A stretch of DNA of 32,057 bases, taken from contig JAEOTE010000125.1 of NCBI GenBank assembly GCA_016839945.1, positions 1-32,057 on the forward strand, given 5' to 3'. The notes below the pieces were generated by a model that was not told where the DNA came from, did no database searches, and saw only the letters and a list, made by a program, of their open reading frames with translations. Positions 9,188 to 13,520 of this stretch are shown here, piece after piece. Both the position numbers and the translations under genes were made by a program. The number at the start of each line of letters is the position of its first letter. Within the stretch, counting starts at the first letter, position 1. Source of the DNA: Candidatus Heimdallarchaeota archaeon. Lineage in GTDB: Archaea > Asgardarchaeota > Heimdallarchaeia > Heimdallarchaeales > Heimdallarchaeaceae.

Positions 9188-10195
9188 TCATAAGACGAGT
9201 ACAAGAATTACGCCACAAATGGTTAGTAAAACTCCTAACAAACCGATTTTGTTTATTTTCTCTTTATTTATAACCCAAGATATCGGAAGAGCAAATAGAG
9301 GACTAGAAGCAGCAATCAATGACATTAAAGGCGCTCCAGCAACTCTTGTTCCTTCTGCAAAAAGAAAAGCTCCAGCTGAGGTTCCTAAAAGTGCTGCTAT
9401 TAATAACCATCCCCAATGTTTCTTATTCCAGTTTTTAATTTTATATTTCGGCGTCCTCCAAGCAAACAAAATTAAAACCAAAGCAGCGAACGGAAAGCGT
9501 GCTGCATTTCCAATTAAACTACTATTAGCTTCAGTATTCAATAAATCAGAGATAATGTTCAAAACCTTGTCAGTATAAACAATACCAAAAGCCCACGAAA
9601 TTGATGCAACCAGACCAATTGCAACAGAAAACCAAATCTTAAACCTAGGTTTTTCAATGATTGATTTGAATTTATTTTTAAAATTTGTAGGATTATCAAT
9701 ATTCTCATTTACTTCATTTTCAGCAGTAATTTTTTCTTCTAGATTCTGATCTTGTGTCTTGGATGTTAGTTCCTGACTTTTGGCGATTAATAAGACACCA
9801 CCGATTATTAGAATAGCAGAGATATAAAACCAGTAGTAGATTTTTGTGTGAAGAATTAAAGCTGATAAAAGGAAGGTTATCAAAGGGAAAGTCATTGAAA
9901 CAGCTAATGCTTTGGTTGTACCAAGTAGTTCTTGAGCCATAAAATAAGCTGTATCTCCAATTACTTGTGCAAATAGAACACTAACCAGCAGAAGAAGCCA
10001 GATACTGGATGAGAAAGAGAACATTTCAAGAAAAACACCTAGAATGAGAGCAGCAATAACAAAAGTTATTGCTCCTATTGTTGTCCTTACTGCATTGATT
10101 TGAGATGGAGAAGCTACACTCTCTACCTTTCTGATCATAGCATTGGAGATTACAAAACAAAGAATGGAGGAAACAGCTATAATCTCTCCAGCCAT
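9188..10195 (-). CDS. DMT/EamA-family transporter
   Basis: About 10 TM segments in two EamA repeats; characteristic GDTAYF...LG..KA, FP....LS..IL and SPLFALPIS...KEKI...G.LG patterns. Confidence 0.85.
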   Translation of the reverse strand: MAGEIIAVSSILCFVISNAMIRKVESVASPSQINAVRTTIGAITFVIAALILGVFLEMFSFSSSIWLLLLVSVLFAQVIGDTAYFMAQELLGTTKALAVSMTFPLITFLLSALILHTKIYYWFYISAILIIGGVLLIAKSQELTSKTQDQNLEEKITAENEVNENIDNPTNFKNKFKSIIEKPRFKIWFSVAIGLVASISWAFGIVYTDKVLNIISDLLNTEANSSLIGNAARFPFAALVLILFAWRTPKYKIKNWNKKHWGWLLIAALLGTSAGAFLFAEGTRVAGAPLMSLIAASSPLFALPISWVINKEKINKIGLLGVLLTICGVILVLVL

Positions 10196-10274: not shown

Positions 10275-11399
10275 TTGAGAATAATATCAAAAGGTGTTGT
10301 GATTTTGAACACTAAAAATGATGAAGAGTACATAATTGAGCAGTTCACTATTGAGAAAGATGAATTTGAAGAGTACTCGAAATTAATCACTCAAGCATTC
10401 CTAAGTGATGAAAATGCAATACAAGAAGGTGCAACTGTAGCATTTTCAGAGGACACTTTCAATATGGTGTTTGGTGCTCCTTCCATTTACAATAATTTAT
10501 TTATCAGAGCGATTCATAAATCATCAGGACAGATGGTTGGTTTCTTAGGAGCTATTCCTCGAAATCTTTCAATTTTAGATAGTATTTACAAATTCGCTAT
10601 CCTTGCATGGCTCTGTGTTCATTCTGATCATCAGAGAAAAGGTTTAGCAAAGAGGATGGGTAAGAAAGCATTTGAGATAAGTCTTAATACTGATTATGAT
10701 GGAGGATTTTCTTTTCATGAACCTAAACAGCATGGAATAGATGTTTCAACATCTGTATCCAGAGAACTGAAAATACCTCTTCAGACAATAGCAACCCTGA
10801 CTAAATTCGTCATTAAAGCGTTTGATGTAGATAAAGTTTCTACTGTAGTTAAACTAAGGTGGTATGAGAAACTAGTATTCAGATTTTTTGAGAAAGTAAA
10901 AACTGTTGATTCTAAGCAAATAAGAAATCATCTAGAGAAAGATATACCAGCTATGTTTGAGATAATTCAAGAGCAGGTAAAACGACATCAAGTATCTATT
11001 GTACCTGATTTAGAGGATTTCAAATGGATGCTAAAGAATCCCAACGTGAATTGTGTTGTTCATGAAGATAACAAAGGCAAAGTAAAAGGCTTTATGCTAG
11101 CTTGGGAATTCATTCTTGCAGGTATGGGCAACCAAGTCCCATATGGCTGGTTAGATATGGTCCACATACACAGATTGAATACTGAAGAAGCTAGCAACTT
11201 AGCGAATTATTTGTGTCAAACATCAAAGAAACGAGGATGGTTAGGATTGCAAACACCATACATCCCTTATTTTGATTTTAAACCATTGAAAAAAGCAAAA
11301 TTCTTCTCCTTCAGTTATAAAATAAATATTGACATTTTCAACTTGAAGAATGTACCTATACCTGAAGAAGTTGAATCTATCTATTTTGATTGGAGATGA
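10275..11399 (+). CDS. Double-GNAT acyltransferase resembling glycylpeptide N-myristoyltransferase (NMT)
   Basis: GNAT acyl-CoA-binding motif LCVHSDHQRKGLA; second GNAT-like half; segments match recalled NMT motifs (VGFLGAIP, KDIP, GKVKGF). The true start may be a few codons downstream. Confidence 0.7.
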   Translation: MRIISKGVVILNTKNDEEYIIEQFTIEKDEFEEYSKLITQAFLSDENAIQEGATVAFSEDTFNMVFGAPSIYNNLFIRAIHKSSGQMVGFLGAIPRNLSILDSIYKFAILAWLCVHSDHQRKGLAKRMGKKAFEISLNTDYDGGFSFHEPKQHGIDVSTSVSRELKIPLQTIATLTKFVIKAFDVDKVSTVVKLRWYEKLVFRFFEKVKTVDSKQIRNHLEKDIPAMFEIIQEQVKRHQVSIVPDLEDFKWMLKNPNVNCVVHEDNKGKVKGFMLAWEFILAGMGNQVPYGWLDMVHIHRLNTEEASNLANYLCQTSKKRGWLGLQTPYIPYFDFKPLKKAKFFSFSYKINIDIFNLKNVPIPEEVESIYFDWR

Positions 11400-11440: not shown

Positions 11441-11704
11441 TTACTTTCTAGATATTTTAAAAACTACTGGATTTTTGTAATCAGGGCAACATACAGTAAC
11501 ACTGTCTTTTTCATCTTCCCAAGGAAAACTCGCTCCTATTCTAATCCCTAAAACATAAGGATAAATCGAATGAAATGCTGCTGCACAGATTTTTCCTCTT
11601 TCTTCTGGATATTTATATTTCTCTCCAACTTGATGTCCATATGGGCATGTTCCGGCTTCTAGAATACTAACTACTTCTATTGCAACTTCACTTTCTTCTG
11701 ACAT
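11441..11704 (-). CDS. TIGR04076-family Cys-rich small protein
   Basis: GTCPYGHQVGE...ICAAAFHSIYPY...CCPD..NPVVFKI signature; AGGTGG ribosome-binding motif upstream. Confidence 0.85.
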   Translation of the reverse strand: MSEESEVAIEVVSILEAGTCPYGHQVGEKYKYPEERGKICAAAFHSIYPYVLGIRIGASFPWEDEKDSVTVCCPDYKNPVVFKISRK

Positions 11705-11719
11705 TTTTTCTCCACCTAT

Positions 11720-12217
11720 CTATTCCGATTTCATACCATAAAGTTTTTCTCTAATATCTTGATCTGTCCAGCCTGAGATTCTTTTAAAGATCCACACTGC
11801 TTGTCCTAGGTGATTACTCTCATGATTAATCAATCCAGCTATCATCTTTCTTCTTGGTCTTTCTCCAAAACCAGTTTTAATTATCTCTTCCTCTTGTTCC
11901 TCTGTCATATTCTCAATACCTTCGCTAACTGCAGAAGAGATCCTTTGGAATTCCTTTTCCAAATCCGCTAATGAAACAGTATCGTCAGGTAAAGTTCCAT
12001 ATTGGAAACCTAGTTTTGTGTCTTCAAAATCTACATTAGGAATAAGATTCTTAAACCAATTGAGGGTTGAAAGTAAGTGTCTAAATATCAACTCAACTGA
12101 CCAGGTGTCTTCTGTATACTTCTTGTGAAAAATTTCTTCATCTACAAGTTTGAAGAGCTTAAAATGTTGGTTTCTGTCCTCTTCTACTAGTTTATAATAA
12201 TCTGCTAATGAAAACAT
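11720..12217 (-). CDS. DinB/YfiT-family protein
   Basis: WSV..IFRHL and HESNHLGQ metal-binding His pattern; four-helix size. Confidence 0.85.
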   Translation of the reverse strand: MFSLADYYKLVEEDRNQHFKLFKLVDEEIFHKKYTEDTWSVELIFRHLLSTLNWFKNLIPNVDFEDTKLGFQYGTLPDDTVSLADLEKEFQRISSAVSEGIENMTEEQEEEIIKTGFGERPRRKMIAGLINHESNHLGQAVWIFKRISGWTDQDIREKLYGMKSE

Positions 12218-12254: not shown

Positions 12255-13520
12255 TTAAGATGCATGCAATTGCCAAAACCAGAAAATCCAATAGAGTATA
12301 ATTAGAATTGCACCTATTATACTAGGAATTTTCTTCTTTCCTTTCAATAGTTTTATTGCAGAAATATTCACTACACCAAAAACTAACATAAAAATGACGC
12401 TTGCAGCAGTTGCTACTATTTCAATATTGAATATTAATACAAAAATTATACTAATAATTCCAGAAGCAGCAATAGCTCTAGCTGGAACTCTTGTTTTCTT
12501 ATTAATTTTGGAAATGGCTTTTGGAATAACTTTTTCATGAGATAACATGTAAGATAATCGTGAAGATCCAAGTAGTGTTGCGTTGATTGCAGAAGCAGCT
12601 GACACTATAGCTGCAAAAGCCATAATCCACCTGCCTGCCCCTTTTAGAAAAACTTCTGCAGAATGTGTAAGTATTACTTCTCCAATATTCTCTAATTCGA
12701 GACTCCAACCAAGAACTCCAACTGTTATTACAGCAACAGAAACATAAAGAATCAAAACAATGATTATTGAAAGAAACATACCAATAGGCAAGTCTTTTTC
12801 TGGATTTTTCATTTCTTCAACTGAATTTGAGAGGATTTCAAAACCTTCCATTGAAACGAAAATTAATACAGAGCTAGCAATAACAGGAAGGAAGCCATTT
12901 ACAAGAAATGAGGGATCTGTAAAATTAGACTTCTTTACGGCGAAAATTCCAACTATTACATAAAGAACAAGTATTCCAATTTTTACTAGTACTAAGATAT
13001 TTTGCGTTCTACTAGTTTCCTTAATACCTATAAGATTTAAGCCAATAAATAAAAGAACACTTAAAATTTGAAAAATAAAAGCTGAAATATTCGCTTCATA
13101 GAATGGTAGAGTTATTATCTTATCTCCAAACAGATGCCATACTTCTCCCAAATACCATCCAAAAGTCATTGCGTATAAGCTTACTGAAAAACTGTATCCA
13201 AACCAAAGAATAATCCCTAAAGATCCAGATAGCTTTTTTGATTTGAACGCTTCTCGAACGTAAATAAATGCTCCTCCAGCTCTTGGGTATCTAAGAGCAA
13301 GGTGAACATAACTATAAGCAGTAAAAGCACTAACAATGCCTGCAAGAATAAAAGATAAAAATGCCCCTGGACCTGTGTTTGAGATTACTAGTCCTAAAAC
13401 AGAAAAAACTCCACCTCCAATAAGTGCACCAACAGCTATTCCTAAAGCTTCTTTTAAACCAAGCTCTTTAGAAAGTTCAACAACCTCAGCATTGGCTTTG
13501 ATGTCATTATTGTCGGACAT
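12255..13520 (-). CDS. APC-superfamily amino acid permease
   Basis: ELGL...IGGGVF, YPRAGG, GFE...EEMKNPEKDLP and SSRL.Y motifs; about 12 TM segments. Confidence 0.92.
   Translation of the reverse strand: MSDNNDIKANAEVVELSKELGLKEALGIAVGALIGGGVFSVLGLVISNTGPGAFLSFILAGIVSAFTAYSYVHLALRYPRAGGAFIYVREAFKSKKLSGSLGIILWFGYSFSVSLYAMTFGWYLGEVWHLFGDKIITLPFYEANISAFIFQILSVLLFIGLNLIGIKETSRTQNILVLVKIGILVLYVIVGIFAVKKSNFTDPSFLVNGFLPVIASSVLIFVSMEGFEILSNSVEEMKNPEKDLPIGMFLSIIIVLILYVSVAVITVGVLGWSLELENIGEVILTHSAEVFLKGAGRWIMAFAAIVSAASAINATLLGSSRLSYMLSHEKVIPKAISKINKKTRVPARAIAASGIISIIFVLIFNIEIVATAASVIFMLVFGVVNISAIKLLKGKKKIPSIIGAILIILYWIFWFWQLHAS

Follow-up and report, generated by a model that had tools for sequence, protein, structure and literature searches.

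N-Myristoyltransferase (NMT; EC 2.3.1.97; Pfam domains PF01233 and PF02799), exemplified by human NMT1 and yeast Nmt1p, is a tandem GNAT enzyme in which the N-terminal lobe is the acyl-coenzyme A (acyl-CoA) lobe and the C-terminal carboxylate is catalytic. The backbone amides of the Phe-Leu pair in its EINFLC beta-bulge form the oxyanion hole, N246 of this motif in human NMT1 (HsNMT1) is part of the pocket for the Gly-2 amine, and the N-terminal core segment at about residues 115-150 of HsNMT1 covers myristoyl-CoA. To our knowledge, N-myristoylation is taught as a modification of eukaryotes only, and we know of no accepted prokaryotic origin for NMT. Here we describe an NMT-type double GNAT encoded at positions 10275-11399 of the forward strand of contig JAEOTE010000125.1 (assembly GCA_016839945.1) of a Candidatus Heimdallarchaeota archaeon; the window is the whole stretch of 32,057 nucleotides that was analysed.

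Several other double GNATs with an active N-terminal lobe have been described. The mycobacterial tandem GNATs MAB_4324 (7q3a) and Eis (3sxn) share the double-GNAT core. In Eis the C-terminal carboxylate is also directed into the active site, a third domain is present and hexamers are formed. HisAT/NAT16 (9emd) and the archaeal Ta0821 (3c26) belong to double GNATs with archaeal relatives; the HisAT/NAT16 subtype is defined by a beta-hairpin with a Trp, instead of the C-terminus, in the active site. A 2025 study (PMC12219266), which states that NMTs as previously reported were limited to eukaryotes, found archaeal and bacterial "NMT-type" double GNATs, whose C-terminus is at the active site, in the AlphaFold DB. 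Its table includes a Thorarchaeota protein. We found no paper in the open literature that combines N-myristoyltransferase with Asgard. The window protein is an uncharacterised variant of this NMT-type double-GNAT acyltransferase, a type already noted in archaea and bacteria.

The window protein is a homologue of NMT that has an NMT-type fold and a CoA-binding motif and whose chain end is fixed at the NMT register, without being an orthologue of the eukaryotic enzyme. We consider it probable that it acts as a soluble, stand-alone, acyl-CoA-dependent N-acyltransferase of about 364 amino acids with the NMT-type tandem-GNAT architecture. The complete NMT design, comprising two GNAT lobes, a CoA lobe and an end at the position of the NMT carboxylate, is thus already present in prokaryotes, and Heimdall-group archaea are where one compact family built in this way is concentrated. 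Since the design exists there, the origin of NMT becomes a tractable question of which prokaryotic family was its source, and the small soluble proteins of the family can be used to probe the ancestral substrate. Nothing in the sequence or the predicted structure shows protein lipidation by the window protein or an origin of eukaryotic NMT from it, and the importance of the finding would become high only with a demonstration that proteins are fatty-acylated or that the family is robustly sister to NMT.

Similarity to NMT in sequence and predicted fold

The translation matches the NMT N-terminal domain PF01233 at residues 27-128 with 38.1 bits (E 1.8e-9; cut-off 25), far below the 145-152 bits of true NMTs. 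Matches to Acetyltransf_9 (38 bits) and Acetyltransf_1 (26.3 bits), both above their Pfam cut-offs, place it in the GNAT superfamily. When the single sequence was compared with the PDB by phmmer, NMTs made up the first 28 matches, in two collinear stretches. A 53-member profile of the family brought up NMTs as all of its first 35 PDB matches, with yeast NMT the best (E 6.3e-15, both lobes aligned collinearly). Of the other GNATs, the highest-ranking one reached E 0.004, and Eis had E 0.83.

Alignment of the family against an NMT alignment by hhalign gave a probability of 98.8 (E 5.4e-17, 226 columns). It pairs EEYSKLITQAFLSD with KELYTLLNENYVED and SSGQMVGFLGAIPRNL with SNQKLVGFISAIPANI, as well as WLCVH with FLCVH, IRNHLEKDIP with LRPMTKKDVP, and EDNKGKVKGF with ENDGKVTDF. 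MAFFT L-INS-i also pairs SKKRGW with AKSKGF and IFNLK with LYNWK, and in its alignment the C-termini coincide to the last residue. The FLCVH-type strand (WLCVH in the window protein) is in both cases followed by the CoA loop. A first-pass annotation of the locus, made from the letters and open reading frames only, had proposed end-to-end collinearity with NMT for the frame 10275-11399 on the plus strand; the frame and the eight motifs it quoted are present in the translation, and the collinearity is reproduced by Pfam, phmmer, hhalign and MAFFT. Overall identity to NMT is about 15%. The region of HsNMT1 T282, the Thr of the catalytic water, is occupied by a 14-residue family-specific insertion, where hhalign and MAFFT conflict with the secondary structure of the model.

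The AlphaFold2 model, built with the family alignment, has two alpha/beta lobes (mean predicted local distance difference test score 93.4, predicted template modelling score 0.89). In a Foldseek comparison with the PDB the best 50 matches were all NMT, with a template modelling (TM) score of about 0.75 over some 370 columns. In a search made independently of Foldseek, over about 48,000 PDB entries that each represent one sequence cluster, yeast NMT scored Z 31.1 and Cryptosporidium NMT 29.2, followed by the tandem GNAT MAB_4324 (22.6), Eis (19.9), the clavulanate tandem GNAT (18.9), MshD (15.6) and HisAT 9emd (14.8). No FemX-type chain stands among the 50 rows listed by that search, which is an absence from the list, as no test was aimed at FemABX. 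A second structural comparison covered about 1000 chains. Superposed on NMT over both lobes, the predicted model gives Z 31-33 and a root mean square deviation of 2.6-2.9 A over 333-337 residues. Among PDB entries NMT comes first, well ahead of Eis, with which the first-pass annotation had recommended a comparison.

The chain end follows NMT as well. Residue 374 of the model falls on the last residue of human NMT1/2 (496), Aspergillus (492), yeast (455), Leishmania (421) and Candida (451) NMT, and with the deltaC3 truncations of HsNMT1 the alignment ends at model residue 371, equivalent to 493. The shared C-terminal register that had been suggested from the letters is thereby borne out in both the MAFFT and the structural alignments.

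The likeness proposed to the double GNATs HisAT/NAT16, MshD, Eis and the clavulanate-pathway enzyme bears on a different explanation, in which the protein is an N-acyl or N-acetyl transferase for a small molecule (an amino acid, polyamine, amino sugar or antibiotic-like amine) built on an NMT-type scaffold. HisAT itself shows that free amino acids are within reach of a double-GNAT scaffold, and it takes acyl groups from C2 to C16 (PMC12219266). However, the model reaches Z of only 14.8-22.6 to the small-molecule double GNATs versus 31-33 to NMT, and it follows the C-terminal register of NMT. Taking into account the family distribution and conservation discussed below, we regard this explanation as somewhat unlikely.

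The WR-COOH family and its putative active centre

We use the name WR-COOH family for the compact family that contains the window protein; residue numbers refer to the 374-residue translation (P0001). A word-based search found 107 relatives with 35-90% identity, from sources named Heimdallarchaeota, Lokiarchaeota/Promethearchaeota, Thor-, Gerd- and Sigynarchaeota; those that are annotated bear the name "GNAT family N-acetyltransferase". Conservation is complete or nearly so at positions that include Y19, E22, G52, F90, G92, V115, H119, G123, A125, E149, P150, G154, R217, D223, W322, W373 and R374. In motif A, H119 is invariant and G123 and A125 are nearly so. The segment aligned to the Ab-loop of NMT is conserved, as is the whole C-terminal lobe, and the family carries a conserved insertion, D-G-G-F-x-x-x-E-P-x-Q-H-G, that is absent from NMT. 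Among 119 listed proteins, 116 have WR, FR or LR as their very last residues (97 of them DWR), and the three exceptions carry unrelated C-terminal sequence. Such a residue-exact chain end is as expected if the terminal group is functional, as it is in NMT.

The genome that contains the window has a second copy on contig C115 (L002:1387-2562, plus strand), which is 45% identical to the first and also ends in DWR (P0090); its open reading frame is listed with 391 amino acids, the real protein probably having about 365. Related genomes contain one to four family matches each. In complete genomes of Ca. Heimdallarchaeum the family gene is in pieces. The reading frame of Ca. Heimdallarchaeum aukensis CP084166.1 (L059:6001-7092) ends after 120 amino acids, and in two further genomes of the genus (G026:C1 at about 1011617-1012705 and G074:C1 at about 1138301-1141232) the profile matches lie in separate pieces, some on opposite strands.

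Broken copies of this kind might indicate a catalytically dead scaffold or a binding protein in which the fold alone is kept. However, about 120 proteins that span 33-90% identity show little or no variation at H119, G123 and A125, in the W-L bulge or in the terminal WR. This pattern indicates selection on the active centre, and a dead scaffold is hardly credible.

On the basis of these comparisons, a mechanism of the NMT type can be outlined for the predicted N-acyltransferase. The N-terminal GNAT lobe (residues ~14-190; 10314-10844, plus strand, as are all features of the gene), delimited by the Pfam NMT and Acetyltransf_9/1 matches, the secondary structure of the model and the alignment with the NMT N-lobe, is presumed to be catalytic and would bind acyl-CoA through an intact Q-x-x-G-x-A loop. 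This loop, Q120-R-K-G-L-A125 (10632-10649), is recognized from the sequence and from family conservation as the pyrophosphate-binding loop of GNAT motif A (Q/R-x-x-G-x-G/A). W112-L113 (10608-10613) align with the Phe-Leu of the NMT bulge, and Q120-x-x-G123-x-A125 with R-x-x-R-x-A of NMT (R-S-K-R-V-A), both correspondences being at the level of sequence. By analogy with NMT, the backbone amides of the W112-L113 bulge may polarise the thioester as an oxyanion hole. The C-terminal GNAT-like lobe (residues ~205-374; 10887-11396), assigned from a weak NMT_C match, collinearity with yeast NMT and the model alignment, would provide the acceptor cleft.

The terminal D372-W373-R374-COOH (11388-11396) is the fixed end of the family, and in the model R374 lies on the C-terminal residue of NMT. 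Because its C-terminus coincides exactly with that of NMT, R374 is expected to bring its free carboxylate into the active centre, where the carboxylate would probably deprotonate the acceptor amine. It is by analogy with NMT that we deduce terminal-carboxylate catalysis, the oxyanion hole and enzymatic activity as such. We read the sequence and the model as a protein that appears to keep the catalytic layout of NMT (CoA loop, bulge strand and terminal carboxylate) without the elements specific for Gly-2.

Several observations weigh against an NMT-type acyltransferase. The match to the NMT_C domain PF02799 has 14.1 bits, under the cut-off of 27.9, and covers residues 210-274, aligned to positions 25-91 of the 198 in the profile. 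As the first-pass annotation had noticed, the EINFLC Asn (HsNMT1 N246) is replaced; its place is taken by Ala111 in the window protein and by Ser in the family consensus. In the model, residue 14 corresponds to HsNMT1 151, so that the first ~36 residues of the NMT core (115-150) are without a counterpart, and only about three residues of the probable 364-residue protein precede residue 14; an acyl pocket and burial of the carboxylate are supported by the model no further than the alignment ranges extend. The terminal residue is an invariant Arg in the family, in contrast to NMT, so that the side chain, rather than the carboxylate, might be what is constrained. The function would seem to be dispensable, because the copy is broken in Ca. 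Heimdallarchaeum genomes. No neighbouring gene is conserved, and neighbour clusters reach at most 9 of the 45 loci, which gives no functional hint. Finally, both the WR-COOH family and the wider superfamily are biochemically uncharacterised.

Phylogenetic position and distribution

An exhaustive HMMER search of 1.8 billion representatives yielded a set of more distant proteins of 344-411 amino acids with 20-24% identity, referred to here as tier 2, and reached two true NMTs directly (E of about 1e-5 to 3e-4). The tier-2 proteins share with the window protein the length and the two-lobed model, their matches to Pfam NMT and NMT_C are equally weak, and many of them end in Y-x-[DE]-x-R-COOH; they correspond to the NMT-type prokaryotic structures of PMC12219266. 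According to the ESM-Atlas cluster labels, from which the tier-2 taxonomy is taken, the nearest clusters are bacterial (Aminicenantota, Acidobacteriota, Pseudomonadota and Myxococcota), with TM 0.84-0.86 and alignment through residue 374; TM is lower for the clusters of eukaryotic NMT (0.79) and giant-virus NMT (0.72). As to whether the best hits are widespread bacterial double GNATs, which the first-pass annotation had set against its own proposal, the answer is mixed: these bacterial families are the closest models in ESM-Atlas, and NMT remains the best match in the PDB. One tier-2 sub-group included a single Thermoplasmata chromosome, and one tier-2 alignment used in the locus search found no loci. 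What sets the WR-COOH family apart from tier 2 is its distinctive WR-COOH end, together with conserved motifs peculiar to it; it is a compact family inside a large, mostly bacterial superfamily of double GNATs of about 350 amino acids.

In a tree of 83 rows (LG+C20 posterior mean site frequency model, quick search), NMT and the WR-COOH family form separate long-stemmed clades, each with a support of 100 in the Shimodaira-Hasegawa-like approximate likelihood ratio test (SH-aLRT). NMT was represented in the trees by metazoans plus two divergent short forms, which the Atlas clusters suggest are probably from giant viruses. The maximum-likelihood tree groups NMT with tier-2 families (SH-aLRT 91), and the WR-COOH family groups with a different tier-2 group (SH-aLRT 96 in a 48-row tree). 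A topology constrained to a single clade of NMT and the WR-COOH family is worse by 7.3 log-likelihood units, a difference at which the approximately unbiased (AU) test does not reject it (48 rows, LG+G4; p 0.362). The description "ancestor or sister of NMT" in the first-pass annotation thus finds no place in the maximum-likelihood tree, yet its sister variant is tolerated by the AU test.

Measured against a full-length NMT profile, true NMTs score more than 500 bits, the best tier-2 protein 62.9 and the best member of the WR-COOH family 52.8, with medians of 42 for tier 2 and 44 for the family. By these scores the family is no nearer to NMT than its tier-2 cousins are.

Three short, divergent true NMTs, P0161 (371 amino acids), P0176 and P0307 (364 amino acids), were seen on metagenomic contigs of about 1-2 kb, with NMT and NMT_C matches of 104-163 bits; a word-based search started from P0176 yielded a single relative. 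Since ESM-Atlas clusters of matching size and domain content are 81-96% Nucleocytoviricota, these are probably NMTs of giant viruses.

These results bear directly on the explanation that the gene encodes an archaeal N-myristoyl or long-chain acyl transferase for the N-terminal glycine of proteins, as a direct ancestor or sister of eukaryotic NMT. It agrees with NMT being the best match among solved structures, with the shared C-terminal register, with a Heimdall-group Asgard archaeon as the host and with the AU result. However, the maximum-likelihood tree unites NMT with other prokaryotic families, tier-2 proteins do equally well or better against the NMT profile, and both the EINFLC Asn and the N-terminal segment of the NMT core are absent. 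Together with the patchy distribution and the proteome data given below, this makes the explanation very improbable.

Distribution was assessed in an even sample of 201 genomes from 59 genera of the phylum Asgardarchaeota, to which the window belongs, with the family profile at E <= 1e-20. Matches were found in 26 of the 201 genomes and in 8 of the 59 genera. They include 18 of the 21 sampled genomes of the window's own family, Heimdallarchaeaceae, and none of 10 sampled genomes from other families of its order; two large families of the same phylum, with 40 and 19 sampled genomes, also lack any match. The WR-COOH family is found mainly in this Heimdall-group family; it also has members in a small number of further Asgard lineages and, here and there, in bacteria. 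PF01233 matches 23 of the same 201 genomes; because no match exceeds 39 bits, as against 145-152 in true NMTs, no sampled Asgard genome has a true NMT.

Among GTDB species representatives, intact members with the same DWR end are carried by long bacterial contigs of 0.16-5.7 Mb (L038, L043, L045, L049, L058, L062, L064 and L068). The carriers include Smithella (160 kb), a deltaproteobacterium (5.7 Mb), Leptospirales (187 and 331 kb), Fusibacter (1.25 Mb), Neomarinimicrobiota and a bacterial chromosome of 2.3 Mb. In the tree the bacterial sequences nest within the archaeal diversity, which argues for inter-domain transfer and against binning error, and suggests that the family has been transferred between Asgard archaea and bacteria. 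Movement between Asgard archaea and bacterial phyla (Smithella, Leptospirales, Neomarinimicrobiota, Fusibacter), patchiness, breakage in Ca. Heimdallarchaeum and the large bacterial superfamily all agree with the transfer of an acyl group to small molecules. On the other hand, that explanation is at odds with the conservation of the Ab-loop-aligned segment and of the whole C-terminal lobe, and a biosynthetic neighbourhood is not conserved in the 45 loci. A reading of the family in terms of eukaryogenesis is tempered by the same data: it is patchy, there has been exchange with bacteria, and its bacterial cousins are at least as close to NMT as it is.

Candidate acceptors and genetic context

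A crude proteome of the host genome, consisting of 2403 non-overlapping open reading frames of at least 100 amino acids with ATG starts and hence crude start calls, was scanned for signs of Gly-2 substrates. Gly stands at position 2 in 2.6% of these frames, versus 5.8% Gly overall, and is thus depleted. Enrichment of MGxxxS/T, which the first-pass annotation had suggested looking for, did not appear: 9 of 63 Met-Gly frames have Ser or Thr at position 6, compared with 267 of the 2340 others (p 0.43). The MGxxxS/T frames encode an M23 peptidase, an ABC transporter, a TPR protein, RNA polymerase subunit B and a CCA-adding enzyme, and none of the candidates is homologous to known myristoylated proteins. 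Published Asgard Arf proteins (two papers) are without myristoylation sites or Gly-2. All this counts against N-terminal glycine as the substrate. Some acyl-CoA could be made by the host, since a single AMP-binding ligase and a single acyl-CoA dehydrogenase are encoded in its genome (88% complete), in which no acyl-CoA-binding protein was found.

A Ras-family GTPase is encoded at C133:8618-9352 (L080, plus strand; Pfam Ras 135.8 bits, with Roc and Arf matches as well). Its Met-Gly start was considered and set aside as internal, since the frame runs 27 codons further upstream.

As regards the acceptor of the predicted NMT-type acyltransferase, we lean slightly, and tentatively, toward an amino group of a peptide or protein that is not restricted to the N-terminal glycine. 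The grounds are that the protein resembles NMT much more than it resembles the small-molecule double GNATs, that the Ab-loop-aligned segment is conserved, and that paralogues have expanded. A small-molecule amine is also a possible acceptor; bacterial exchange, patchiness and gene loss point to a small-molecule or portable function, and so, in sequence terms, does the lack of a ribosome-binding N-terminal extension such as that of NMT, along with the missing Gly-2 signal in the proteome. That Heimdall-group archaea fatty-acylate the N-termini or lysines of their own proteins, with two to four paralogues per genome, is improbable in our estimate. If true, prokaryotic protein lipidation would share its catalytic design with eukaryotic NMT, and the family might even be the stock from which NMT arose, because the AU test leaves the sister relationship open.

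The maximal open reading frame (10275-11399) comprises 374 codons from a TTG plus the stop, and its start is probably an over-extension. The true coding sequence most likely occupies 10305-11399, beginning at a second TTG and encoding 364 amino acids plus the stop, because nearly all relatives have 363-364 amino acids and their first residue corresponds to query residue 11, the genomic match to the family profile begins at 10308 (model position 2), and GGTG at 10293-10296, which reads as a possible Shine-Dalgarno-like element, lies 8 nucleotides before TTG 10305. The window is AT-rich, with a G+C content of 30-34%.

In the absence of a conserved neighbour in the 45 loci, the gene stands alone. 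The neighbour clusters that do recur, in at most 9 of 45 loci, occur in close relatives only, and the window's neighbours are not among them; none of its flanking frames recurs beside WR-COOH family members elsewhere. These flanking frames all lie on the minus strand, opposite to the gene, and encode a 335-residue multi-pass hydrophobic protein (9188-10195), an 87-residue Cys-rich protein (11441-11704), a 165-residue protein (11720-12217) and a 421-residue hydrophobic protein (12255-13520).

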